Positions 5,901 to 38,604 of a stretch of DNA of 43,082 nt are shown piece after piece. Where the stretch lies: contig NC_081440.1 of the NCBI RefSeq assembly GCF_007210705.1, forward strand, positions 5,296,144 through 5,339,225, in the 5' to 3' direction. Position 1 is the stretch's first letter. Every line of letters begins with the position of its first letter. Origin of the DNA: Tigriopus californicus (taxonomy: Eukaryota). The notes below the pieces were generated by a model. It saw nothing but the letters and a program-made list of their open reading frames with translations. It did not search any database and was not told the DNA's origin. The position numbers were made by a program, and so were the translations under genes.

Positions 5901-7379
5901 CTCGCCCGTCTCACACAAAGAAGACACACAATCGAACTTCCTCGCTCTCTGAACCTCGTGTTCATGCCTTATGCTCGTGGTTGCTTCTAATAAATAAACC
6001 ATGGGAGTGCCATGGGGAACATGGGCTAGCTAGATAGCCATATAGTAGACCGAGGACCTGATTGAGAGAAATGTCACATAATTTTGATGTTTTCAGGTTA
6101 TTTGGCGTTTTACCTCTTTTTCGAACTAATTCAATGACTTTTGGTCGGATTTGAATTTTGTTTTGTTGCCATTTGGCGATTTAAAAACAAAAATACTTAT
6201 GAAGTGTCACTAATTTCTTAAGAATGCAGTTCAAATGCTAAAGATAAAAATGCTAAAAATGTACTTGGAACAATTCATTGTTAAAATGTTACAATACTTT
6301 TCAATTATTTAGGATGTTTCCAAACTGAAATCTTCTGAATGATTTTACGTAACATTTAAGGTATCAATATTTTTTCGAATTTTCAGGCCATGTACCTTAG
6401 CTGCCAAATATAAACAAAAGAGTTTGTATAATGTGTAACTCATCGTCCAAATTACATTTGCATCTTGATTCTAATCCACGATTATACATCAAAAAGCATT
6501 TTTTGGAACCCAGTTGAATGCTTAGGACATGATAGGGTATTCATATTCTTTAATTGAAAATTTTACCTTGACATCATTTTGACTTCAATGAATGAGTCAA
6601 AAAAAATATTTATTGATGATAGCCGATAAGCAAGCAAGGTGATGAAGCTATTTGCTCTTTTGAAGTTCTGATAACGGGCACTTACTGGTGATGAATTTCT
6701 GATTCACTCTCTCATGTTTCATTTGTTCACATTTTTGTTTCAATGTGGATGCTGATACGAAATTATTGCGAGAAAATTCGATGGGCAAATAAAAGATAAG
6801 TTAACGGCCCATTTGCACCCATCGACTTTTTTTTAATTTTTTTTTTAATTCGTGAGCAAGACGCGTTGCAAAGCACTTAAATATGAAGCAAATAAGAACG
6901 TCGAGTAACTGTTGAGTCAACAAAAATGATATAACCAAGTGAGCTGGGGGCATTCATGGGAAAGTCATAAGGGAAACTTTTATCTCAAGTGTGAAACAAA
7001 GACTTTTCAACATAGAGTCATATACACCTATGGGAAGAACCCAATTCGTTGGACAATCGTTGTCCCTTAAACCCCCAACAAACCCATTCTCGTATGTTCC
7101 CAACTTGACCCTCATATCATTCTCACTCTTTCTTTTTTGTTTTTAGGTTCTTCTACCTCTTGTTCGTCTTACTTCGAATCTGGAATAACCCCATTGTCCC
7201 ACAGTGGAATCTGGATCCAGGAAAACACTCGCTTTCTGCTCCAACACCGTGTCCGTGTTGGCGAATCAAAACGAGCAGTCCTTAGTGTCTTTCCTGCCTC
7301 CCAATTCTGAGTTCCACCAGAAGCAGTAGAAGTAAGCTGTAAGGCTAAGAACAAGCTACATACAAGCCAGAAGCTCTGC

Positions 7380-8551: not shown

Positions 8552-11265
8552 CGTAAGAGGCCTCGAAAAAGTACTGCTAAGCAGGCCTTAGGCCTTGGAG
8601 CTTGGCTTGAAGGGCAAAACCTCCAAGGGCGGGTGAGAGAAAGAAAGACACACGCACGAGCCAATACTCAATTCTGAAGCTTGACGTTTTCGTACGTATT
8701 CTCGAGTACGTACCTACCCCCTCAAAGGAATTTGCGCACCGCCTCTTCTCCTTCTCTCGCAGAACTCTCCCAGAATTGGCTAGTATGAACAGACCTGACC
8801 AGAAAAAAGCAGTTTGAGCGACGTTTGTACGGTCACATTGCAAGTCTGTGGTAATTTGAAGACCACATTCTGCGATGTTGTGCACGGCGTCTAACTCTCA
8901 TAATTGAGTCGCAATTTCTTGCAACTGATTCATTGCACATACGCCTTCTTTTCAAGATGGCACTTGACCATCTCACGGGAGCAAACCGCATTGGATTTGG
9001 TCCTGGTTGTCTATGCGATATCATATCCAACGCACCCTTGCGCATCAGAGGGAGATCTTGCTTGAAGGACTCCTCCTTGACAATGAAGGTGAAGCCACGT
9101 TTGTCTTGCACTGCTGCTGCCAATACCTCAAATGAGTCGGTGGTCTTAGTTTTAAGACTGATAGCAGTGAAAGTTGGTTACGGCTCATCTCACTATGGGA
9201 AAAGAAATGAACAAGTTGATGTTCAGTTTCAAAAGACAGGAAAAAACGGACATCAGATGATTGGTAAACACTGTCTGATCATTAACGTCAGTGAATTTTT
9301 TATACGTTTGTCATACATAAACTTTAAATTACTAAAGATAGTGAGGCAAAAACTGATAGCAGATTGAGATGTAGTGAAAAATAGCACTCCTTTTAAATGC
9401 CTGCCACCAAGATGAGAAGTATGTTTGGTGCAACTCCTAATCACAACATCCTGTTAAGGGTTGGGGGCCATTTGGTCGCCATTTGATGGATGATATTTAA
9501 AGACTGTAAACAAGTTTTCACGAGCCTAGCTAGTGCTTCACTGATTCAGTCATTGGGAACGAGGGTTCAAACGTGCAAGCAGGCCTTAGCTCGGTACTCA
9601 AGTAATTCTCGAACTTCAAAAGGCCAAATGACCCGAGGAACACTCACGGGAAATTTCCGGGTTGAGAACCGTGAGCAGTTCAACATTCTTCAATGTGTTT
9701 TACTTTCTTGTAAGAGCATGCGTGTTTGGCTGTCCGTTGTGAATCGCTGTTTGCCCTAGATTTTTCCAGCCAATTATTGAGAATTGAGCGGTTGCTAGGT
9801 TGAAGATCCAATTCATTGTTGTGGATTGTTTCGGAAGGAGTTGCTATTCCGTTAATCTGATGCGGACAGTGTCCTCCAGAGTTTGACACTGACTCTTCAC
9901 TTCAGAGACGCGTTTCTTAAAAGACATTTGGAACCACAGCGCGTTCACAAAGTTCAGTCTATTTCTTGACGTCGACCCAAACTGTCATGAATTTTTATAT
10001 TCGTCAGTAAAAAGTTTGAGTTAATATTTTGGAGCAAGGTAAGAGATTCAAATGTCACCATAAATAGCCACGTGTCTTGCCCCCCAATAACTCTTGAAGT
10101 AAAATAACAAGTTGACCTGCTTGATATATTTATGAGTACTAGACTAATCAATAGATCAAGAGCATTAGCTCACGTGACAATAAATGATAAATGAGGGCGA
10201 AAATTTGATGCGAACACCAATGTCTTCTCTAATGGGTCTGCTATACAATATATTTTGGGGCCTTCAAGAAACTAAAAATGTATGATTCGTTACCAACAAA
10301 AGTAGCTATAGTATAAAGGTAACCATCTTCACAAGGATAATATGCTTGAAAAAACAAACTCAAAAATATTTCTTTTGACAAATATCATCAATACCACGCT
10401 TGTAGTTAATGTCCGTGAAGTTAGATATGTCCTTCACATGCTAAGGTTAACATTGGTCTTTGGTACGACTCGTTCAATTGACAGTTTGGGTCATCGTGAT
10501 GATTGGTTCCACAAGAACACTCTCTGTTAGACTTCCCTCCAAAACTGAATGCATATGATTGCTGATATTATTATGACGTTATGAAAGATATTTAATGAGG
10601 CAAACAAAACGATTTACCCCTCCAAATGAGATGTAAAGATGGCCGATGACTTCATCACTTTGTCCATTTCACCACGTGTGATAAAACGTGTTCAGATTCT
10701 GCTCTACCATGCTCATTTAGTGAATTCGAAGGTCTTTGAATATTGCTGAGGCGTTGAAAAAAAAACCAATTTTGAGAATTTGTACTCATTAGCTAATGAA
10801 GCAAGTCAATTTCTGGCCTGATGTGTAATTTTTCGTCTCTATTAGGTCGATGCGAATGAGCACTACTCCAAAAGTAAAGTCGTTCGTTCGATTTGTTTAT
10901 TAGAACTTGCAATAAATGCTCTGCATATGGAGTTAAATGTACTAGTCGTAACATCAGGTTCTTCCCTATTGCCTCAAGCGCGATATACTCAATGTCCTTG
11001 AAACAGTAATTTGGGCATGGCTGAATTCGATCGTGAATCCGCCTTACCAAGTAGATCACAGACCGAAGTTACAAATTGTTTGTCATCAATGGCATATTGA
11101 TCGGATATATGTCATCAATTGAATGTATGTTAAGGGCCCGGTAGTAGAAACGAGTGTTCCAAGAGAGGATCCCATCCCTCAAAACGGGCACAACAGCGTG
11201 TGATGTTGAGTTTGGTTTCCTCGCAGCAGTAACAGCTGATGCTCCTAACGCCGTTTCTGAGAAGT

Positions 11266-11290: not shown

Positions 11291-11896
11291 TCGCAGAAAT
11301 CGCAATGACGTTCGTTCTTAGTGAGGGGCAGCGGCTAGGGAAAGGCGCAGCTGTTGTGGCCACCGCAGCTTGCTTTTGTCAAGACTGGGCTGAATGAGGA
11401 GGAAAGCTGTTGAGGTGGCCATGTTGGCCAACTGGGACTGGGAGTTGTACTCGTTGTACTGCTCTGAAGCATTCTCTGCTTTTGCTGGATAGAGTGGAGC
11501 TATAGAGGAGTCCAGGTTATTCTTTATGCTCTCTCCGAGCAGCAAGAAGTGAGCAAAGCTTGGCATTGGCTTTACTGCTTAGACTGTTCACGAGCAAGTC
11601 TATGACAAAAAGTTTTCACTGTGCCCCTCTGGTAAAGACAACGCTTGTTTCATCTGGGCTCCCAAGATTGATTTGTAAGTGAAGTTGAATCTATTTCCTA
11701 AGAAGCTGTATGGCGTCAAATTTCAGTGGGAAAAGTGTGAAGGAAGTCTTGGACACTGGGGTAGAGTAAGTCGTCCTCTTGCAAACGAACTAGCTGCCGT
11801 AGCTCTCTCTAATGAGGACGATAAAACAAGATTTGAAAGGCTATCTATAACTCTGCACCATTTCTCTTGTAGACGGTCGCCAACCTCTCAGTCATC

Positions 11897-12196
11897 ATGG
11901 ACCAGGAATCGAATCAGATGGAACAGCAGTCTGTGCAATGTCGCAACGGATGCGGCTTCTACGGAAATGCGGGCAGTGAAGGTTATTGCTCTGTGTGCTA
12001 CAAAGAGGTGATTAAGAAGAAGCAGCAACCACCAACGAATATGCCTTCATCATTGGCACCCACACATGGCACGATGGCCTCTCTTTCCATTGACGAAGCC
12101 TGTTCCATAAGCCCAACCGCCTCTAGTCCATTGAAATCCACTTCCCTCAACACGGCTTCCCCCACAGTTCTGATACCGCCCTCTCAAATGGAAAAG
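11897..12196 (+). CDS. ZFAND5/6-like: AN1-type zinc finger protein 5/6-like (ZFAND5/ZFAND6, ZNF216 family), exon 1, encoding the A20-type zinc finger
   Basis: QCRNGCGFYGNAGSEGYCSVCYKE is a canonical A20 zinc finger (C-x2-C-x11-C-x2-C). Donor GAAAAG|GTAAGC at 12197. An acceptor tttctcttgtag immediately 5' of the ATG (about 11870) implies a 5' UTR intron. Confidence 0.8.
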
Positions 12197-12303
12197 GTAA
12201 GCCTCGATAATGACCAAATATGAAGGCAATGATACACGGAACTCAACTTTATATCCTCTAGATCAAGATCCACTTGTTTAACAATGATCAATCCTTCTTA
12301 CAG

Positions 12304-12493
12304 AGGGAGTCAGAGACCGACATGAGCGGCTCTTCAGCCTTGTTGGGCGGTTCCCCTCTCCCCTCTGATATCAACGCTGTCGCGGCTTCACCCAGCTCCT
12401 CCTCCCCTTCAGAAGACGCCGATAGTGGGGCCAAGGATGGTAAAAAGAAGAAGAATCGTTGTGGATGTTGTAAAAAGAAAGTGGGTCTAACAG
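12304..12493 (+). CDS. ZFAND5/6-like: ZFAND5/6-like exon 2 (Ser/Pro-rich linker and start of the AN1 finger: KKKNRCGCCKKKVGLTG)
   Basis: Acceptor cttacag|AGGGAG at 12302/12303, phase 0. Donor ACAG|GTAAGC at 12494, phase 1. An alternative acceptor ctctag at about 12261 cannot be excluded. Confidence 0.6.
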
Positions 12494-12748
12494 GTAAGCA
12501 AGCTATCTAAATTGAGTCACATGTACCATTTCCACATGACAATAGAACGTTGGTGTTAGTCTTGTCTAAGCCATGAGCTTTTGCAACGGCTAAGAAGCCT
12601 CTGGGCTTCCCTCCCCACCTGACCAATTAAGGCTTAGTAAAGTAGGAAGTCGAATCATAGCAACCTCTTCTGGCATTCCATGTAGAGCAGGAACTAATGA
12701 GAACATTTTTGCTGAATATTCTCTAAATCTATCTACTCTTTGTTTCAG

Positions 12749-12897
12749 GATTCACTTGTCGTTGTGGAGGACTGTTCTGCTCAATACACCGATACAGTGA
12801 TAAGCACGATTGTCCTTTCGACTACAAGGAGCTGGGTGCTGAGGAAATCAGAAAGAGCAATCCTATGGTGGTAGCCAAGAAGATCCAAAAGATCTAG
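12749..12897 (+). CDS. ZFAND5/6-like: ZFAND5/6-like exon 3 (AN1 zinc finger C-terminus, stop TAG 12895-12897)
   Basis: Acceptor tttgtttcag|GATTCAC. The joined translation ...KKVGLTG|[48 protein letters not shown] is near-identical in pattern to the human ZFAND5/6 C-terminus ([46 protein letters not shown]). Total about 212 aa. Confidence 0.85.
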
Positions 12898-15800
12898 GGA
12901 CAATTTTAGAATACTAAACACAAAACCTACGAGCAATGTTGTGTGGCAAGAAGAAAAAAAACAAGAAAATAGTAGAAGAATCGTCAGTGACCGGATATCT
13001 CGAACACGAATGGATGCCCAACAAAGTAACCGTTAGAGAAGAAAATCTTCAACAACAATGACCCCAACCATCCCTCGGCAGCACCTTTGTTTTTTCATAA
13101 TGATGAAAATTTGTCATTTTTTTGCGACTGCTTTCACCATGTGTGTTTGACAAACTTTCAGAAATAGAAAAAGACTCGCGTTGTGGCTCTATTAACTCTC
13201 AACATTCACGTTGTTGCCCGTTAATTTGGATGGCGGATCAAATTCCCATCGAAAGACCTGCCAGCTCGCTGATCCATGGCCAAGGAAAACGGGTCGTCGA
13301 GAAATCTAGGTCTGTCTTCAAAATCAATGCCAACATAACTGTCTCAACATCCGCAATCCCCCGCAACAATTACGAAAACGATCCCTTGAACGGAGGGTTC
13401 CCCAATTGAGAGACTTTGTGATCAGTGTTTATCCCCGCGGGTTCAGATATCGTTCGTTGCCGTGTCGCCGCCAGTTTCCTCCGCTTCCAAACCATCTCGT
13501 TTGTCTGCTGCAATCAAAGTTCATTCTCATTCGTAACCCTGAAATCAACCATACCGTCCTTCCGTCAATGACTATCTGGAGCAATCCTGCCTTATCCGAA
13601 GGAGTTGGAGTTCAGCTGCTTGGAAACGTGTTCCATATCTTGTGCGTGTGTGTATAGATCGAAGAGGCAACGGAAATGGACAACCATCGGTCTGGAGAAC
13701 GAACTGGAAGTCGAACGGCACGATTAACCCATCTCGACTTGCTCGAATAGTGTTGAGTTTTCGTTCACTTTGTGTGTGTGTAAATATAGCATATACCTTA
13801 TGATAGATTATGTTATACACTCCTTGCTCTTCCTGCTTTTACCTCTCCTCCCTTAGTCCCACATCATACTCGCCCTACTTGATTCTTCGTGGCTTTGAAA
13901 TTCGAATCGATTTCCTCTTCACTTTTTGCTGCCGTTTAGTCCTCAAAATATGTTTGACACTGACTCTTATCCTCAATTACCTCACCTCAGCCAACATCCT
14001 AAGATAACGCAAACGCAGATTCTTTGATAAACGCGCGCAAGAATGAGTTTCCTCTCCCAATTTTTGGCAACAACTTCAAAACATGTCTTAAACACTGAAA
14101 GAAATAGAGTTTCTTTACCTTCCCGAACACTGATCACTTGGACGAACAGATGTACGCATGTCGCAAAAAATTGTCCCTGTCTAAAGGGATCGAATCATAT
14201 CTTCTCGAGATTTGTAAGTTTGGATTTCAAATTTGTTTTTGTCCTTGATTAAGAAAAACGACACCTTGGAAAGCAATCCTTGCCCTTGCATTGATGTAAA
14301 ATTACTTTCATTCGACACGAGGATCAATTGGCTTAGTAGTTAAACGAACTATTCGCCATGCCTTTGAAGTAATATCACCACAATTTTTACTCTCATCCGA
14401 CAAAAATAGACAAGATTCATCCCAAAAACGATCTTAGCATCCAAACTCGTTACGCTGTAATAGATGAGAACGACTGTAAAAAGCCAGCTTGGTCCCTGGC
14501 TCAAATCGTGATGAACGATGAGCCATTTAACATGCAAACTACTATTACATCTAAATCTGCTACACCTGAAAGAGTTGTAATCTGCTTGGAAAATGTTAGT
14601 GTAAAATTTCTCACAACTTTTTCTTGTTGCCAACAATAAACATTTCATTGTTTACTAAAATACAAAAAACATGCATATTTCTTCACTAATCTAGAGGGAG
14701 TAATCGCAACTTGTGGGTACCTACGTATTAAAAGTGCCAAAGTTATTTCATTCCTGCCAAGGATTGGAAACTGAAAGACTCCCAATCCTGAGCTCCGTTA
14801 ATCTGGAGAAAAAAGTAAAGAAGATAACTGCTATTTGGGAAATGGGGTGTCCTTGTCACAAAAGCTCACAAGTCTTGGCTTGCACCAGGCTTGATTTTTC
14901 TCTGAGCTATGAGACCCTGATCTATCCTGCATAAACGCACAGCATTGTTCCCAATGCTACCCTTGAATCCATGGAAGTATTTCGTTCTTCAAAAGCCCAA
15001 TGTAGGTGTCTATATTGGCTTTAACACACTCGGGTACGACCTCAAGGGGGGGGTCCTCAGTACCAATAACACCCGCAAAAATCATGATATGGGGCCAAAT
15101 GTTGGCAAACAAACTATTTTAGACTATTTGGGAATGTCTTCAACGCTGCAGGTGTACAGGCTATCATATTGGCGGTCCCATGCTGGCTGAACAGTTCTTT
15201 TTCTTTCATAAGTCGAACTTTTTGCAGAGCTTGGATCAATAACAAGCATTTTTTTTTAATTTATTGTCCTCGTTGAGACCTCTTGGCTTATGGTGGCCTC
15301 AAAAATCTTGCCTTCCAACATACTTGCAGAGCTTCATGTTCGAGTCAAAGTTGATCAGCCTTCTGAGGCTGGTTTCTGCAATATGGAACTCGCTGCACAT
15401 CTGTCTGGCTTCTGTTATTCTTGAATAGTCTCCCTATGCTCCACAAAATATGATCTACGTTTTGCACTTCAGAGGGCGCTTTGTAAGCCAGCCTCTACCA
15501 AATAAAGAGCAGATTGGGCTGATTCCTCTTTATTGAATTATAATGAGTTTGTGTTGCTTTTGGCTAATTCTATCAAAATCTTATTAATAATTAATGACCC
15601 GGTCACATAATGACCGGAAAAGAAATTGCTTTCAAGGCAAGGCAAGAGCAGTTTATTTAGCAATCTACCGTGCCTCTTCCCGTTTTCTTTGGGCAGTGTG
15701 ACGATGCAAATAAGGGACCTCCGTCCCCTTTGGGATTGAAAATGAGTTAACTCTTGAGATAAAATACTGGGAAAAGAGCAGAGACCAGGAAGAAGATGTC

Positions 15801-15949: not shown

Positions 15950-18400
15950 CCTTCAGTCTTTTCTTGAAAACCTTGTTGGTGCATATATAATCCGGGATAT
16001 CTGAGTAATTAAAGAGGTGTGGGAAAACATAACCAGGGAGAGCTTTCATCCACTCTTCACTACACTTTGGCTCATAAAGCCATAAACGACGCCTATTGTG
16101 AGGAGAGTCGTCCTTTTGATCCTATATTTATCCGCTTCCCTTATACCCTCCCCCAACATCAGTACCTTTTGTACATGGCTTAAAATCTTGATCTTTCTCA
16201 GATCTTCTATTTTGAGCACCTTGAATTTGTGGAATAAAGGGCTCGTGTGTTCCCTCCAATGGGCTTTTGCAATCCAACGCACAACTCTCTTCTGAATTTT
16301 GACTAATTTGTCAATGGGGTACCCCCGCGTGGTTTCGTGAGCGCAAATTTTGAAATGCGACAGTACTAAACTGTAACCAGTCGCATTTCAAAATGTGCGT
16401 TCACGAAACTATCTGATACTCGCAGTAGGTGCAACTAGGTAAAAATCGCATCTCAAAATATGCACTCACAAAACCATGTGGGGGTGCCCCATTGTCTTTG
16501 CTTCTCCAAAGAATTCCAACCCGTAGTCAAATACACTTTGGACAAGTGAATTGTACATTAGCAGCTTCATTTTTGTTGGAAGATGTTTTCCATGGTGGCT
16601 AAAATTAAGTAAAGTTTGCTTTAATCTATTTTCTACATTGGTGATATAGAATGTCTAAGACAATTCATCGTCCAGCCAAAGCCCAAGGAATTTTGTGGCT
16701 TTTTCAGGAAACCATCTGCCAATTCTCTCACTCGAAATTGTAACCCCCACAACCTAGATTGAAGATTGATCTCTGCTTTGTGCGATTATATACTAAAAAT
16801 TTACTTTTCGCGACATTTGATGTAAGTCTGTTTCTGTTAAACCAGAGATGGAGTTCCTCCAACCACTCATTAGCCTCCTGTTTGACCTCTCTTGCATTGC
16901 CTCCAAAATGCTGTAGCGTTGTGTCATCAGCATACATGGTAAAATTAAAGCCAGTACAATTTGGCATATTGTTAACATAAACCAAGAAAAGCAACGGACC
17001 TAAAATGCTCCCATGGGGTACACTGCATTTGAGGCCTTGAGGCCTTAACAAAATGCTACCAATTTGTACTAGTTGTGAGCGATTTGATAAATAGTCTTCA
17101 AACCATTGAAGAGTCCAATTCTTGACCCCATAGGCTTGCAGTTTGAATAATAATACCTCGTGATCCACGCAATCAAAAGCTTTTTTATATCAAGAAATAT
17201 GGAGACTCCGAACTTAAAATGTTTATGTTTTAATATATTATGTAGATAGTTTCTTAGGGCATGGTTTGCACTTATTTCAGGGCAAAAGCCTTACTGTATA
17301 CTTGACAGGTGCTTGTCGAAGTACACTAGAAATTGCTTAGAAACAACCTTTTCCACAACTTTGGAGCAAGCTGACACTAAACTTATTGGCCGATAATTTT
17401 CCACCTGATCTTTTTGCCCCCCTTTGTGGAGCGCTATTACCTTCCCTTTCTTCCAGCCACACGCTGTCTTAGAGTAAGCCAAGGAAATATTGACGAGTAT
17501 AGTAAGGGGCTTACTTATGATCCCGTTTATTTTCCTTAACAAATTGTTTGAGACACCGTCACACCTGAGCTTTTTATGCACTTGAATTTTTTGATTATAT
17601 TGAAGACTTCCAACTCACTCGCTTCTGAAAACTCAAAATCTGTTTCAGTTTTTGTAATATTCTTTACGGCTTCCTCTGGAATACTTTTGAATTTTTGATT
17701 CAGAGATTGTCCAATCATACAGAAGAACGTATTCAAGCTCTCAGCAATAGCTTTGTGAGACGTTACCGTTCCATTCTGAGTTTGGATAACACTAGGATAG
17801 CCCCCGTTTCCTTTTGTTGGTTTATTTAAGACTTCATTTAATCCCTTCCATGCATTTTTAGTATTTCCCCAGTTCTGTAACGCAATGTCTTTGAAATAAG
17901 TTAACTTAGCCTCCAAAACCAATTTGTAATATTGTCTTGCATACTGTTTGTATCGTAATTTGCCCTTCTCGCTTGCCTTTTTTGAGTTTTTGAATCAACA
18001 ATCCTTTCTTACTGTGAACTTCATTAAGCCATTAGTCATCCACGGATTAATTTTGACGCAATTATTCCTCACCCTAAATTCCCTCAAGGGACAAGCTGCA
18101 TCAAAATCTTCATTGAAATTGATTTTGAATTTACTGAACGCCTCCTCCGCCGCCAAATCGATAAAATCCCATACCCTTTCCTGGAGCAATTTGCGGAGTT
18201 TATCAGTATTCTTATCTGAAAAGGATCTGCCGCAGATTTTATCATTCTTTTTTGATTGACAGAGTTCAGACCCGTGTGAAATATCAATGAAAGGAGCCCA
18301 GTGGTCTGCGACATCACAGACCAGCGTACCAACTTCCAATAGAACTTTTGCATTTGTTAATATGTTATCAATACGTGATGAATTAATTACTTTTTTCGGA
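15950..18400 (-). mobile_element. 5'-truncated, frame-disrupted non-LTR retrotransposon (CR1/L2-like LINE) ORF2 remnant
   Basis: Minus-strand ORFs in different frames (16728..17168, 17291..17581, 17536..17922, 17995..18339). They carry RT motifs NYRPISL, GVPQGSILGPLLF-like (VPHGSILGPLLFLVYVN), YADDTTL and WFxxNRL. ORF 16046..16282 carries the CR1-type C-terminal HTSPLFHKFKVLKIEDL signature. No endonuclease domain is present and the reading frame is broken several times, so this is a dead copy. Confidence 0.75.
16310..16496. mobile_element. foldback/MITE-like element inserted into the LINE remnant
   Basis: About 50-bp terminal inverted repeats (gtcaatggggtacccccgcgtggtttcgtgagcgcaaattttgaaatgcg versus the reverse complement of cgcatctcaaaatatgcactcacaaaaccatgtgggggtgccccattgtc, about 85% identity). 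An internal near-perfect 30-bp hairpin lies at 16332-16361 / 16379-16408. It splits two LINE ORF fragments. Confidence 0.55.
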
Positions 18401-21027: not shown

Positions 21028-21099
21028 GCGATGGTGGTATAGTGGTGAGCATAGCTGCCTTCCAAGCAGTTGACCCGGGTTCGATTCCCGGCCATCGCA
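21028..21099 (+). tRNA. tRNA-Gly-TCC: tRNA-Gly (anticodon UCC), 72 nt
   Basis: GCGATGGTGGTATAGTGGTGAGCATAGCTGCCTTCCAAGCAGTTGACCCGGGTTCGATTCCCGGCCATCGCA. The cloverleaf is canonical: acceptor GCGATGG/CCATCGC, anticodon loop CTTCCAA, T-arm GGGTTCGATTCCC. It differs from the human tRNA-Gly-TCC only at the acceptor pair. A Pol III terminator CTTTT lies at 21105-21109. Confidence 0.95.
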
Positions 21100-21859: not shown

Positions 21860-24475
21860 TTAAGCAGAATTATCATGTTGTTGGTTCAGATTTATGCCGG
21901 AGGTTCCTAGTAAACCACTAGCCGTGTTCAATAAATTGATTGGGGTTCTGCCATCCGTGATAAGCGTTGAGCTCAATCCCAACGATTGAAGCATCTTGAC
22001 CTGATGATCTTGTGGGCCACTTGCCATGGCCTGAATGGTGTCGGTTCCCAAAGCTTGAACCATGAGTTGAAACTTCTCGGTTTCAATCTTGGCCATCAGT
22101 TCGGCTTTCTCAATGTCAAGTCGGTTTTGCTCCGTCAAAAACGTGATTTCAGCCTCCCTGGCTCCACGAAGACGCTCCAATTCGGATTCGGATTCAATCT
22201 TGGCTGCCTGAGCCCGGAGTCGAGCTGCTTCAACGGCGGCCTCCGCTTCGATGCGGGCAGATTCAGCTCGGGATGAGGCCTCAGCTTTAGCCTGACCTGT
22301 CGATTCAACGGCAGCGCTCTCTGCTTGAAGGGTCAGAAGACTCCTTCGAGATTTCTCTGCCTCGGCGTCATCGCCAATTTTCTGCCGTTCTAATCGTCCT
22401 CGAGCTTCTTGGTCCACTCTCTCAGCTTCTCGTTTAGCGGCAGCCTCCTGAGACTGAGTCGTAATCTCAATTGCCAAAGTTACAGACTTTTGTAGAGAGT
22501 CTCTGGTGCGTTGATCTACCGGCTCTACACTACGAATATCGATCGAGGTTACGACTAGATTGTTGGCCGGAAACCTGAGCTCTTCATTAGGTTTCATTCC
22601 CTCGTCCACGCCAAATACTGCAAGCTTGATGATTCCGGCTGAGTTCTTGTGGAAATTGTCGAAGCTAACCCCGGAAACAGCGCCTCGAATTCGAGATGCG
22701 ATTGCTTTGCACATATCACCAACAAAATCAGGAACACAGAAGAGCTTGGCCCCCTCGTCTTGGTTGTTCTTATCCTTGACCTCAAAATGCCAGTTGTAAG
22801 ATAATTGTAATTGAAGACGAGCATGGTCGCTAGTCTCCACTGTGATGATGTCAGTGCAAAAATCTGGACCCAAGAGCAAAGCCAAAGCTCGAATCAAATT
22901 AGCCTTTTTTGGTTTTCCTCCAGAGATCGAGAGTTGTGTAAACTCCTCGTTTGGTTCAAGCATCACCAAATCGGGCCCAAAAGCGACTCGAGATCGCTTT
23001 GATTTGTAATCATAGATCTGAACAGCCGCGTTGTTGGGAACTTGAAACGTTACCACCTGAGTGAGATCGTCTTCATCCCAATCGCTCTTTGGCTTGGCAT
23101 CGGCTTTGTCGCTCTTCCGCTTTTCTTTCTCCGGATTGATCCATTCCCCTCGATCAGCGCAAGGATCTCGGTTTCTGTTGAGCAAAGTTCTCACAATGAC
23201 CGGCATTTTCTTTGGCCAAAGCTCCTCGTCTTCACCTAACATGTAGGTTTGCCCAATCACAGATCGAACGGATCCATTTTTCGAGTTTCGAACGTAAATG
23301 CCCTCATTCTGATGCAGAGGTATAGCTTCTCTGGTAACCACTACTTCAACCTCCACGGGTGGAATGTATTCCATTGGGCCCTTCAGCATCCACTTGTCGC
23401 CGGCTTGTCGAGTGACGGGTGGTTCGACCGAGGTGTCCAAGAACTTCTCCAAGGACCTCAAAACTAGACCACTGTCTTCTCCCAAAACGTGAACGTCTTG
23501 AATGCCATTCTCGAGCTCCTCTCCAGGTTGCAAGAAAAAACTTTTCTCGCCCTTGACAAGGACCTTGTGGCCTAGCTGTGGTTTACCATCATTGCCAATG
23601 GGATTGACAACAACGCAGTATTCTCTCTTCGTTAAAGTTATTATATCTACAGTCTGGATGACTTTTTCATACACATCCGGAATGAAAGACTCCATGTCTT
23701 CTAAGGTGATCAAGTACTCTTCGCCATTTTTCCTTGCCTTTCCTTTCTGATCCACGAACGATTTCACAGCCATGACATGGACAGCCATCTTGTCGGTCAA
23801 GACAGTGGCAGAGCACCTCTCTACGATCTCCTCAAAGGCTCCCGGGAGATAGGATCCTTGACGACGAACAAGCCATTCCTCCCCCGCCACTCTCTTCTGA
23901 TCGTCGCGATCAATGGTATCTCGAAGGGATCGTAGCTTTAGAGCCTCGTTAGGCTTGATAATGACAGCCTTTTGAGTCGAAACAACTTCAACCTCTTTTC
24001 GAGGAATATACGTGCCAGGTCCTTCAAAAAGGTACTCGTCTCCAGCTACCCGTGGTGTGCCATCATCATTGAAGTCCCGCAAGACCCTCAATCTCAGAGC
24101 AGTTAATGCGTGAACCACTGTCAAAGGTTGGACCTTTGTCTCCACTTCTTCTCCTGGATAGAGAGGGAACGGTTCTTGCTCAAGGCGGACTTCCGTTTCG
24201 GCATGGAGAAGCTTCACTTGACCTAATCGATCAGTCACAACGGATCCGTCTTCCGCTCGAGCCACCGGATTTTTAATGGTGCAGTAGTGCCGAGGTGGTA
24301 CAACAATCATCCTGGCAGGATTTTGAAGGACCTTCTCATTATCCTTGCGAATGAACGTCTGAGGCCCGACCTCGACACGGCTAGTATTGGAAGTTTGATC
24401 CAAAACGTGGATGTAGTAGTAAGGCGGAATCCGGAACAAGGACCCATCGCAATCAGCTTCTTTGTCTCGCCCCAT
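21860..24475 (-). CDS. MVP: major vault protein (MVP), complete single-exon CDS, 871 aa
   Basis: Collinear with human MVP from the N-terminus ([25 protein letters not shown] ~ [26 protein letters not shown]) through the MVP repeats and the shoulder domain ([36 protein letters not shown]) to the C-terminal coiled coil ([25 protein letters not shown] ... [20 protein letters not shown]). Start assigned to M76 of the 946-aa ORF (MGRDKE.., ATG at 24473-24475); the 75 upstream in-frame codons are judged to be 5' UTR. A possible 5' UTR acceptor ccattttcag lies just upstream of the ATG on the minus strand. Confidence 0.9.
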
Positions 24476-24759
24476 CTTGGTTCTTGGCTCTGAAAATGGA
24501 GAATGGTCCCTATGAGTTGAATCCTCCCAACGTGATCGACATGGATTCTGGTCCAGATGGCGGTCTCGGGTTCGTTTGCTCATGATTATTGTACCAACCT
24601 TGTGAAGACGTATTGCCGAAGGGCAAGAGAAAAAACCAGTGAAGATGGTTCTCTGAAAAGCTGGCCTTTTGAGGTAGAGCGATTTCACCGAGTTGCACAA
24701 TGGTTACTCAGATTCGAGGGTTGCCAACGTACTATCCAATGGGAATGACTCAGCCTTCA

Positions 24760-24849
24760 TAGGCCCACTGCTATCTTCGTCACCCAGGGAACCTTATCGA
24801 TTCGGCCACGTCTTCAGGTTATGAATGATAGTCAACGACTATCGCACAT
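24760..24849 (+). other. TEP1: putative TEP1 5' UTR exon 1 (donor CAG|GTATGTG at 24850; matching acceptor cctctag|CG at 25380, 34 nt before the ATG)
   Basis: Splice-site consensus only. The 5' boundary is a guess. Confidence 0.25.
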
Positions 24850-34800: not shown

Positions 34801-37800
34801 TCGAAACGAGACGTCACAGTAGCTGAACTGAGTCAAATATTGTCCGAAGGGCAGTTCAAACCGATTCCCCCTCTCCAACTATCAATCCTCATAAATGGAC
34901 TGGAAAGTTTCTTGCAGCCCACACAGGGAAGTCTCATCGAAGGGCTCCTGCTTTTAAAGAAAGGGGAATGGTTGAAATCTGTTACTGAGCGCTACTTCTC
35001 AAAGGGGTGCCACTCGGCTCAGAACATTCATCTTGTCTTGGCGGGAGTTTTTCATCATATATACCGCTTCGCTCCCAACCATCCAAGGGCTTTGCAAGGC
35101 CTGCCCGAGCATTTGGCCTCGACAGGAAACGTGAAACTGCTCGAGCAGACCATTTGCAGTCTTGATTACATTCGAGAATGTGCTGCCTTCCCCGACATCC
35201 TTCAAGAGTTGGCTCTACGACATTTCAACGGTCATTATTTGAGTGGAAGACCTCAGCTTGAGAGATTCCTAGCGTCTGAACAGATTAAGGCGTATTCTGC
35301 CTTTGTCCATCTACACTGGACCTCGTTGATCGATCAGCCTAGCCTGGCGTATCAGTTGGCTTTAACAGAACCGCAAAGCACTCCTCCTCACAAAGAGGCA
35401 GTTGCAAAAACTATGAATAATGGTTATGATGCGAAGCAGATTACCACTTGTTCTTCCTCGGCCCCTCTTTGGCTTTTCTGGGAAAATAGGTCAGAGGGGG
35501 AGTGCTTAGGGGAGAACAATGAGGGCACCAACAATCTGTTGGCGGTCAAGGCTTGCAAATCGAGTCGAATGGCAGTGATTTGCCTCGAAAAGTCCTCATT
35601 AATTTCCCCTGAGGAATTGTTGGTGGCTTGCGGGCATGATGATGGACATATAATAGTGGGATTGGCTCATAATAACGAAGAGCTCTTCTCATTGGTGGGC
35701 CATTCAAGCCCCATTTCGTCCCTGACGTTTCTCCCGGGTACGTCGTCATCTGAGACGTGTTTGGTAAGTGGATCTCAAGATGGGATGATCTCGTTTTGGG
35801 ATCTTAACAGTCAGATCAGGACGAATTCGGTCCAAGGGCACAGTCGATGTGTCAGTGGCCTGGCTTGTAGCTCAGATGGACTAACCCTCGTCTCTGTTGG
35901 ATGGGATGGTCGAATCAAGATTTGGAGTGGCCGCTCTCAGAGAGAGATGTCTTGTATTCAACAGAGCACGCAAGCCTTTAATTGCGTGGCCTTTCACCCC
36001 GACAAGGACTACATCATTGCAGGTGGTTGGGACGGACTATTGAAGATCTATGATCTCACGACACTGGAGCGAAAAGCCATCGTCAGAGGCCATTTGACCT
36101 CAATTCAATGTGTGGCCATTTCAAGTGACGGAAAGAAAATTGTCAGCGGATCCAGTGACGGTGTTGTCAAAGTCTTTGACAGTGGCATTGGAGGAGAATG
36201 TGGCTCATTTAGAGTTGGCCATTGCGTTCATTCGATTGCTTTGGATAATAGCAGAATCAATACGGAAGGTGTTCCACGAATCTTGATTGGAACACGCGAT
36301 GGCGTGATTCATTTTTGGACCACTGACGAAGGTACCGAACATCCCTCCATCGTTTTAGATTTGGAATCCGATCTAGACCTTGATGTCGAAACCGTGATTG
36401 ACGCTCCAACTGATTTTGAAATCACCTGCAATGGTTCAGATATGGAAACCGATGAAATTGGTCCTCAAACTGGACTGAGAATCACAAGCTTCTGTATCCT
36501 TCCTTGTCTCTTTGGAGTCACAGACACGAATATGGCACTTGGTTGCGCTGATGGGACGCTTTTGATTGTCAAAATTAGCAGTGTCTCTAAAACGGTGATC
36601 ATGCGTTCAAAAATTGCCAACGGACCGATAATAGGAACTCTGCCAATAACTTGGGAAAATCTGTGGACCAACAGCACATTCGACGAGTGCCACTTTTGCT
36701 TAGTAAGTTCCTCTGAGGGGGTCTACCTTGCTTGTGCAAAAAAGCAAACACTAGAAGGATCTCGTCTACCTCTTGGCGAGTCTGAAGTTCAAGTGGTGGG
36801 AGCCCGGATCTTTTCCTACGGTTCCTCAGATTATGACATCGCCATAGTTCTTGGCACCGCTGCAGGGTTTTGCCTGCTTTTGAAAGTCCAAAATCCAACT
36901 TTAACAAAAATTAATCGGTTGTTCAAAGAGGCCATATGCTTTGGCAATGAAGAACTTCTTGATTTCAAAGTCTGTAAAAAGACTGAAGCGAGTTCCACGG
37001 AGTTCCATTTCCTGACTCTTACATCCCTCAATGTTCTTAGTCTCTGGTTGGGAACAAAATCAGGGATAGTCTTGCTAACTTCACTCACTGATTATTCTCT
37101 TGGATCAAAATTATTCATCCCTAATTTTGGCCAGAAGGAATTTGTATTTGTCACCAATCAGATGGGAAAGTTTGAGTCTTATCTCATCTCCGGGAAAACC
37201 AAGGCGCTTGATCAAGAAGAGGACCAAATTTCGTCCTCAGAATTCAAATTTGTCCATAAAGGAATATTTGAATCTCGAAAGGCTGGATCAATCACAGGCT
37301 TTCTTCAAGCAAGCGAATCAGATTGTTACTTTGGCTGCATTCACGAAAACCAAGACATCACAATCTGGTCGAAAAAGGGCATCGAAATTAAGTGGATCAA
37401 CATGGAACGACAAGGACACAGCTTAGTGAGTTTAAGCCGTCAATCAGTGGGTGGTTCCTGCTTGAAAGATGAAGACCCGTCCACGTGGTATCTGGGCATT
37501 TTCAATCCCAAAAAAATGCGCGGCCAATTTCAAATGTTCGACATTTTCAACGCTAAACTCACCGAGTCCTACATCGGCCATAATGGTCCCGTCACCGCTT
37601 TGAATATGGCCCATGATAGGGTATTTAGTGCCTCTCGAGATGGGACTTTGAGGATCTGGGACGCTGGCAAACGAGGAACGAGGCTGAATGGCAGTCCAGT
37701 GGTGGGTCTGGTGGCATGTAATGGACTGATCTTAACTGTGTGTCGTGATGGCTCCTTAGTTAGCCATGAGGTGGAAGGAGGCCATTCCAGAGTTCTGGGG

Positions 37801-38604
37801 AGCTTCTTCAACGGCCAGGGCCACACCGAGCACATTAGATATGCCTCTCTGGTCTCCCTCCAGGAAGCCATTGTTATCATTGTGGCTACCAATCACCGAG
37901 CGTTGCGTGTGGCTCTCCTGGAAGGGGAAGAAAACCATTTGACTTTCCCTTACCATAAATACTTTTCCGACAGGGAATTGCTGTTTTTCGGCGCCAAGCA
38001 ATCCGATCCCCAGACGTGTATACTAACAGTACTCTTTGACAAACCAAGGATCTCCGGGACGGGAGAAATCGAGCAAGTCTCAATGAAATTGTCCTTCGTG
38101 AAGCAGAAATCCGAGTCTTTTGGCGTGATAACTCTAGGCCAATGGGCTTTGAAAGGGATCTCCTCTCTGCTGAAGATGGTACAAGCTCCCATTCATTTTC
38201 ACGGCCTTGACTTGTCAGAGAATGGATCCTGGATCTCGTCCGCACTGTTCATGACACTGCCTGAGTTGAACCAGATTGTAATTACTGGTGATACGCAAGG
38301 TCTCTTGACAATCGACCTCAACAATGGGCGATGCTTTACCCAACGAATCCACAATCAAGTCATTACTGGTTTACTTGACTGGTCGGGGAGATTAGTCTCA
38401 ATCTCCTTGGATGGTAAACTAAAGATTTGGTTAATCGAACCAAATGCTCTTTTGGTGAGGATGACTGAAATTGGCCAGTTCTCAGTAAATAATACCCCTC
38501 TGACTTGTGTGGAAACTGTTCGTGTGAATGGTCGTGAAAAACTTGTTGTGGGGGATCGATATGGTCAAGTCTACGTCTTAGATCATGACCGAAGAAAAAA
38601 CTAG
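31881..38604 (+). CDS. TEP1: TEP1 exon 6 (terminal, 6.7 kb, 2240 aa): TROVE C-terminal part, DUF4062, NACHT NTPase and WD40 repeats (about 1000 aa)
   Basis: Acceptor cctttttcag|A at 31880. HGNKAAIWESLIDNKKLPYMATIRNLRNL ~ human RGNKASVWEELIENGKLPFMAMLRNLCNL. SRMFPFQFYTAFD ~ SRQFPFRFLNAHD. IRVFVSSTFTDMHGERDL..IDLRWGI..CHLFIGLLGDRYGWKPP ~ IRLFISSTFRDMHGERDL..IDLRWGV..AQLFVGILGSRYGYIPP. The NACHT P-loop is present, as are many WD repeats (LVSGSQDGMISFWDL, IVSGSSDGVVKVFD, ASRDGTLRIWD). Stop TAG 38602-38604. Confidence 0.9.

Follow-up and report, generated by a model that had tools for sequence, protein, structure and literature searches.

In Tigriopus californicus, the genes for two partners in the vault particle, the shell protein MVP and the TROVE-domain protein TEP1, are divergently oriented neighbours; the linkage is genuine and old among copepods, and selection has probably maintained it. 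The pair lies in a stretch of 43,082 nucleotides from the forward strand of contig NC_081440.1 (NCBI RefSeq assembly GCF_007210705.1, positions 5,296,144 to 5,339,225), hereafter called the window, from whose first letter all Tigriopus coordinates are counted; it is eukaryotic DNA with a guanine-plus-cytosine (GC) content of about 36-49%. MVP is encoded on the minus strand from an ATG at 24475 and TEP1 on the plus strand from an ATG at 25415, head-to-head, with 939 bp between the two start codons (24476..25414). An earlier interpretation made from the letters of the window (the sequence-only reading) had proposed both identities, products of 871 and 2745 amino acids, the divergent orientation and the 939-bp spacing, and all of these were borne out by Pfam profiles, by homologues and by the gene models described below. 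That reading had also treated 21860-38604 as a gene pair, but the interval holds three genes, as a phospholipase B-like gene sits inside intron 5 of TEP1; furthermore, its description of TEP1 as a cap component of the vault is an older assignment.

The MVP coding sequence (21860..24475, minus strand) is a single coding exon of 871 amino acids plus a stop codon, identified by Pfam and by homologues, and its ATG lies inside a minus-strand open reading frame that extends from 21860 to 24700. Four stretches of the protein matched the Vault profile (E value 4e-59), and Vault_2 (3e-36), Vault_3 (1e-33) and Vault_4 (2e-17) were matched as well, all above the curated cut-offs. MVP_shoulder was covered over its entire profile (positions 1-118 of 118, E 2.4e-50), the length of 871 amino acids falls within the expected range of approximately 850-900, and an Ala/Glu-rich helix can be read in the translation at about residues 650-800. 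Identity was 100% over 889 amino acids to the NCBI protein TCAL_04082 of Tigriopus californicus, 85% to a T. kingsejongensis protein, and, among the matches listed, 61-65% over 97-100% of the length to MVPs of named non-copepod animals (arachnid, echinoderm, sponge and mollusc). Vault assembly is supported by differential centrifugation for the salmon-louse MVP (PMC11219742), and the Tigriopus protein is known here from sequence alone.

The deposited NCBI model, TCAL_04082, differs from this gene model at both ends: it comprises 909 amino acids, begins at an ATG at 24583, and takes its last 22 amino acids from a segment at 13511-13446, some 8.4 kb away. This model was rejected, because the upstream ATG is unconserved and the alignments with homologues run from residue 1 to residue 871, that is, to the C-terminus obtained by reading through, instead of to the distant exon. 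The ATG at 24475 was preferred over the one at 24583 because all close relatives begin with MGK[DE] at that position, and an AATAAA signal is found 32 nt 3' of the MVP stop codon. From these alignments, the deposited model appears to be mis-annotated. A look-up by exact sequence gave no record for the MVP of the window or for the NCBI model, and the species was recognised through homology.

TEP1 was modelled on the plus strand as six exons totalling 8235 nt (2745 amino acids), with all introns in frame and of the GT...AG type. The splice junctions were assigned by reading the sequence, guided by tblastn with mollusc, vertebrate and protist TEP1 proteins, which placed segments of the TROVE domain at approximately 26233-26367, 26908-27192, 28046-28183, 28612-28764 and from 31885 onward. 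Exon 2 (26227..26361) contains the start of the TROVE domain, was located with mollusc TEP1 and has canonical splice sites. Exon 3 (26917..27198) matched the TROVE profile as an open reading frame (E 3e-25) and is 53-56% identical to mollusc and vertebrate TEP1, and exon 5 (28647..28766, ending in PETWETQIAK) is 47-51% identical to mollusc TEP1, with its limits set by splice sites and phase. For exon 4 (27929..28182), also part of the TROVE domain, the donor was set by homology and phase and the acceptor is the best polypyrimidine-AG signal among several alternative in-frame acceptors between 27929 and 28049. Exon 6 (31881..38604) is 6.7 kb long and carries the end of the TROVE domain, DUF4062, a degenerate NACHT domain, the WD40 propellers and the stop codon, 41 nt beyond which lies an AATAAA. 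Exon 1 (25415..26137; 241 codons) appears to be the least certain exon of the model: it is Ser/Leu-rich and unconserved, gave no Pfam match and no match to a homologue, and is supported by its open frame and by a good donor (AAG followed by GTAAAT) in phase with exon 2, and the N-terminus of the TEP1 of Eurytemora carolleeae is unrelated to it. Two homology searches, whose query windows jointly spanned about residues 228-1674 of the 2745, returned no T. californicus TEP1 protein, and TEP1 therefore appears to be unannotated in the protein records of this species.

The domain content of the spliced product is that of TEP1. The TROVE profile was matched over positions 12-442 of 442 (E 6.1e-95), DUF4062 scored 49 bits against a cut-off of 24.7, WD40 repeats were detected at E 2.7e-35, and Beta-prop_TEP1_C scored 64.3 bits against a cut-off of 32, while Beta-prop_TEP1_2nd, with 84.4 bits, was slightly under its cut-off of 89. 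The DUF4062 region matched the TIR-like NADase domain of human TEP1 (PDB 11gz_A, E 2.9e-30), and the human stretch SVTEMEV reads SITELEM in Tigriopus, with its two Glu residues conserved; a preprint (10.64898/2026.05.01.722283) identifies E1008 as catalytic. Exon 6 is 37-41% identical to copepod-like TEP1 proteins, and the best named matches of the TEP1 product are annotated as telomerase protein component 1. The NACHT domain matched AAA_16 weakly, at 21.7 bits against a cut-off of 32.6, and its Walker A motif reads GNPGSGLST (residues 1177-1185; window positions 34888-34914), in which Leu replaces the Lys of GxxGxGK[ST]. The Lys was missing from all ten copepod-like TEP1 proteins compared (P0121-P0130; GSGTT, GSGST, GAGIS, GFGST and others), but is kept as GSGK[ST] or GQGKT in P0131, in the mollusc protein P0132 and in vertebrate TEP1; the acanthocephalan protein P0141 has Arg. 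Because the loss is common to all ten copepod-like proteins, it is a trait of the lineage and not a sign of decay, and these alignments suggest that the NACHT domain, present but degenerate, is probably inactive as an NTPase in the copepod-like lineage.

The divergent arrangement recurs in other copepods. In a metagenome-derived locus (L001) whose MVP is 73% identical to that of Tigriopus, counterparts of TEP1 exons 2, 3 and 4 were found upstream of MVP on the opposite strand, and in a second metagenome-derived locus (L002/L003; MVP 75% identical), a homologue of exon 2 was found in the same position and orientation. The two loci come from distinct species: their MVPs share 83-84% identity, close to the value between the two Tigriopus species, and are 73-75% identical to Tigriopus MVP. 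The remainder of the metagenome scan yielded mostly contigs of 2.7-3 kb, which are too short for a test of linkage. In the calanoid Eurytemora carolleeae (GCA_000591075.2, KZ484539.1; locus L039), the NCBI annotation has MVP (minus strand) and TEP1 (plus strand) head-to-head, in agreement with tblastn, with the conserved MVP ATG at 6619, the TEP1 ATG at 10001 and 3381 bp between them. In the salmon louse Lepeophtheirus salmonis, which has three full-length MVP paralogues of three exons each, LsTep1 and LsMvp2 are neighbours on opposite strands, LsMvp3 has a truncated Tep1 homologue opposite it, and LsMvp1 (859 amino acids, chromosome 1) is separate (PMC11219742, Sci Rep 2024). Consistent with this, no TEP1 was found by tblastn (to E 0.1) within 10 kb upstream of the 859-amino-acid L. 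salmonis MVP (L004), because LsMvp1 is the unpaired paralogue.

Taken together, these data show that the pair is present in Harpacticoida, Calanoida and Siphonostomatoida, that in the salmon louse its two genes were duplicated together, and that the salmon-louse pair is almost certainly orthologous to that of Tigriopus. The survival of the pair is noteworthy because so little gene order persists between Eurytemora and Tigriopus, where only 32 collinear gene pairs survive and synteny is almost absent. With randomised gene order and about 15,000 genes, we estimate the chance that a given gene is the divergent neighbour of MVP at about 3e-5. Microsynteny, which the sequence-only reading had named as a check, was thus positive; its impression, given as not being aware of any description for vault genes, was mistaken for copepods, as the position of LsTep1 opposite LsMvp2 was already in print. 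The adjacency itself is therefore not new, and Tigriopus adds to a pair already noted in the salmon louse. The louse adjacency is stated in a single sentence, with no discussion of conservation or of a shared promoter (PMC11219742), and the salmon-louse genome paper, in its main text, goes no further than noting that the vault genes are present. In the literature searched, neither a discussion of the conservation of the pair or of a shared promoter nor a comment on the pairing in Eurytemora was found.

The 939-bp spacer is a putative shared promoter region. Its GC content is 44.6% and its observed/expected CpG ratio 0.90, both above the values for the introns and the remaining intergenic DNA of the window (36-41% and 0.45-0.82). 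A TATAAA motif, a putative promoter element by its match to the consensus, lies on the plus strand at 25349..25354, about 60 nt 5' of the TEP1 ATG. On the minus strand, 14 nt upstream of the MVP ATG, the polypyrimidine-AG signal tccattttcAG (24490..24500) is a putative 3' splice site of an intron in the 5' untranslated region (5'UTR). An acceptor-like signal is likewise located approximately 10-40 nt upstream of the MVP ATG in L001 (~9970-9985), L002, L008 and L010 (~2165-2180), and 19 nt upstream in Eurytemora (~6640-6650), for a total of six species including Tigriopus, and MVP probably carries a conserved 5'UTR intron even where its coding region is intronless. Since such an intron would imply an upstream non-coding exon, the MVP transcription start site would be placed deeper in the spacer and nearer to TEP1; the start sites of the two genes are likely closer than 939 bp, and more so with the putative 5'UTR intron. 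The short spacer, the raised GC and CpG values, the TATAAA motif and the acceptor-like signal of MVP make a bidirectional promoter plausible.

We lean, if not strongly, towards the explanation that the pair has been retained because regulatory DNA in the spacer serves both the MVP and the TEP1 promoter, either in common or interleaved, in the manner of genes with a bidirectional promoter. The pair goes back to an early copepod ancestor and has remained together in three orders although the gene order around it was almost entirely rearranged; according to this proposal, the spacer would serve as a bidirectional promoter region with shared or interleaved regulatory DNA, and the cells and conditions in which the shell protein is made would also be those in which its TROVE/NADase partner is made. 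Several observations weigh against it. No sequence common to the spacers of the four species was found by blastn at a word size of 9, matches being limited to exons and the tRNA, and 7-, 8- and 9-mers common to four spacers occurred at or below the shuffled expectation. The distance between the start codons increases 3.6-fold from 0.94 kb in Tigriopus to 3.4 kb in Eurytemora, and MVP is separated from TEP1 exon 2 by 1.75 kb in Tigriopus but by 2.7-2.95 kb in L001 and L002; given the Eurytemora value, tight spacing is not the conserved feature. Equal output from the two genes would be unneeded, as the vault contains about 78 copies of MVP to about 2 of TEP1, and LsMvp1 functions with no neighbouring Tep1 (PMC11219742). 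Part of the conservation among close relatives is plain relatedness, in that a tRNA-Gly gene and a ZFAND-like gene downstream of MVP (described below) are also syntenic. Outside copepods, a tblastn search (to E 0.1) of the 10 kb upstream of MVP found no TEP1 either in the barnacle Pollicipes or in the horseshoe crab Limulus. The human genes are unlinked, with MVP at 16p11 and TEP1 at 14q11 (PARP4 maps to 13q12 and the vault RNAs to 5q31).

Many of the same observations would be expected if the pair were a neutral relic, that is, if a one-time adjacency in an early copepod had persisted with independent promoters because the short spacer has so far escaped rearrangement breakpoints. The absence of a common motif or sequence among the spacers, the spread of ATG spacing from 0.9 to 3.4 kb, the retention of other neighbours by closer relatives and the sufficiency of unlinked genes in other animals are all in keeping with such a history. 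However, the pair has been kept in three orders despite the loss of nearly all other collinearity between Eurytemora and Tigriopus, its two genes were duplicated together in the salmon louse, and it would be an unlikely coincidence for randomly surviving neighbours to encode two products of one particle; we consider a purely neutral history unlikely, although it retains appreciable probability. The genes might also be held together by regulatory entanglement with no shared core promoter, with enhancers or insulators of one gene residing inside the other and transcription of the two being uncoordinated. The crowding of the TEP1 introns into the 6.5 kb beside MVP and the freedom of the spacer to vary in length would suit this arrangement, but blastn against L001, L002, L007 and the other loci compared revealed no conserved non-coding blocks in the TEP1 introns or the spacer, and the insertion of a whole gene into intron 5 was tolerated. 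Entanglement of this kind is, in our view, improbable.

A more basic objection is that the pair could be an artefact, with the two genes brought together by a chimeric join or with the supposed TEP1 being another TROVE/NACHT/WD40 protein or a pseudogene. The failure of the homology searches to return a T. californicus TEP1 protein, the lack of a homologue for exon 1 and the missing Walker A Lys could each be cited in its favour. Nevertheless, the window contains no N, and the arrangement is repeated in four other independent assemblies, one of them from the literature; because independent assemblies of other species agree, a chimeric join, which the sequence-only reading had named as a potential refutation if located between 24476 and 25414, is excluded. 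Furthermore, the frame of 2745 codons is unbroken across canonical splice sites, the TROVE domain is full-length (E 6e-95), the TEP1-specific propeller Pfams match, and the loss of the Walker A Lys is seen in all ten copepod-like TEP1 proteins compared. The probability left to an artefact is close to nil. Shared or interleaved promoter DNA remains the explanation that we favour for a linkage that is itself established.

TEP1 was likewise not found near MVP on a contig whose MVP is 51% identical to that of Tigriopus (L028), and the MVP flank of Lottia is 69% N and hence uninformative on linkage. In Amphibalanus, MVP and a TEP1-like protein are on contigs that differ in length, which is weak evidence but suggests that the two are not adjacent. 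A linkage older than copepods is possible, since 10 kb is a short reach in large genomes.

The closest known counterpart of the Tigriopus pair is LsMvp2-LsTep1, in which the same two vault genes are adjacent on opposite strands. The two differ in that the Tigriopus pair is single-copy with an intronless MVP coding region, whereas L. salmonis has three-exon MVP genes in three full-length copies, one of which (LsMvp1) is unpaired, and in that a phospholipase B-like gene is nested in the Tigriopus TEP1. The Eurytemora pair is also divergent, with the TROVE exons facing the 5' end of MVP, but its start codons are 3.4 kb apart, its MVP has several introns, and no phospholipase B-like gene was found in the stretch of TEP1 covered. 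Mammalian vault genes belong to the same families and have the same domain order as those of copepods, but are dispersed and intron-rich; moreover, TEP1 of the copepod lineage lacks the NACHT Walker A Lys, unlike vertebrate TEP1, and no copepod PARP4 or vault RNA was found. Among bidirectional-promoter pairs that encode partners of one complex, examples are histone H2A-H2B and COL4A1-COL4A2. The Tigriopus pair resembles these in its divergent orientation, its short GC- and CpG-rich spacer, the membership of both products in one assembly and the conservation of the arrangement across species. However, the spacer exceeds 1 kb in other copepods, and shared promoter activity and co-expression were demonstrated by experiment for H2A-H2B and COL4A1-COL4A2, whereas the copepod pair is documented here at the level of sequence.

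What vaults do has long been a puzzle, and whether the primary role of TEP1 lies with telomerase or with the vault was for years a matter of debate. The survival of the pair across three orders and its duplication in the louse provide independent evolutionary evidence for a functional coupling of MVP and TEP1. Tigriopus is a culturable copepod, and its 939-bp spacer offers a compact system in which to test co-regulation. The gain is incremental, as the louse adjacency was known, the linkage was not seen in the non-copepod arthropods checked, and the function of the vault is not revealed by it.

The two genes also share a distribution of introns that is biased in the same direction. The MVP coding region has no introns in Tigriopus, L001, L002, L008 and L010, and several in Eurytemora, Pollicipes, Limulus and Lottia. 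In TEP1, all introns fall within the first 6.5 kb, next to MVP, and one exon makes up the remaining 6.7 kb at the 3' end, so that the layout of five small exons followed by one very large exon is 3'-biased like the intron loss of MVP. For the intronless MVP coding region, loss of introns in place would fit better than insertion of a retrogene elsewhere, because MVP still adjoins TEP1 and apparently keeps a 5'UTR intron. As an aside, in the Eurytemora TEP1 locus (L039 13121-13586), a 19-residue segment (residues 209-227 of P0283) has six or more matches between about 13.1 and 13.6 kb; either an exon contains or adjoins a tandem repeat, these matches suggest, or the annotation of that model is faulty.

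The third gene of the interval is an intronless phospholipase B-like gene (29115..30812) that lies inside TEP1 intron 5 (28767-31880; 3114 nt) on the same strand as TEP1. It matched the Pfam profile Phospholip_B over positions 1-485 of 487 (E 5.6e-179), begins with a hydrophobic, signal-peptide-like N-terminus, and has an AATAAA of its own 46 nt after the stop codon. No poly(A) remnant, for which the region was checked with a retrogene origin in mind, was found after this AATAAA. The gene is absent from the equivalent TEP1 intron of L007, which is about 360 bp long, and the stretch of the Eurytemora locus covered gave no match to phospholipase B-like proteins; because of these two absences, the nesting is taken to be specific to the Tigriopus lineage. 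On this gene model, transcription of TEP1 must read through the polyadenylation signal of the nested gene.

Downstream of MVP, 760 bp past its stop codon and convergent with it, a tRNA-Gly(TCC) gene is located at 21028..21099 on the plus strand (Rfam, 63.6 bits; ARAGORN). The same tRNA occupies the same relative place and orientation in L001 (13736-13807 and 14270-14341), L008 (4045-4116) and L010 (6572-6643), that is, 0.5-1.8 kb downstream of MVP across Tigriopus and three related species, and in L010 it belongs to a cluster of four tRNA genes (Trp, His, Met and Gly). The other syntenic neighbour, a ZFAND-like gene on the plus strand at 11850-12900 with an A20-type zinc finger (NGCGFYGN...CSVCYK), was found in two relatives (L002 9743-11557; L008 5378-5539). 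As the sequence-only reading had noted, neither PARP4 nor a vault RNA is evident in the window: no gene with a PARP domain was found, and Rfam gave no match to the vault RNA family RF00006 at E<=1, nor did it in L001, L002, L007, L008, L010 or L039, where only tRNAs and chance miRNA-like matches were returned. Motifs resembling box B occurred at the rate expected by chance, and a box B-like site in the spacer (24913-24923) was rejected as a vault RNA gene, having no box A and no T-run. Vault RNA was also not found in either salmon-louse paper, and vPARP was not found in the salmon louse by the 2024 study (PMC11219742). That the MVP-TEP1 pair is the core of a fuller vault locus, which would also encode an RNA polymerase III vault RNA too diverged for RF00006, among or derived from the tRNA genes downstream of MVP, has as its sole favouring point the kept position of tRNA-Gly(TCC) in four species, and we regard it as very improbable; if true, a single block of DNA would pass on and control the shell, the RNA-binding subunit and the RNA together.

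Between the ZFAND-like gene and MVP, translations of the minus strand at 16728-18339 revealed reverse-transcriptase-like open reading frames that represent a remnant of a non-LTR (lacking long terminal repeats) retrotransposon. Beside this remnant, at 16335-16406, is a near-perfect hairpin of 72 nt, whose Rfam match to MIR6140 (E=1) is a chance one. Lastly, a fragment of a major facilitator superfamily (MFS) transporter was identified by Pfam at 187-1677 of the window.

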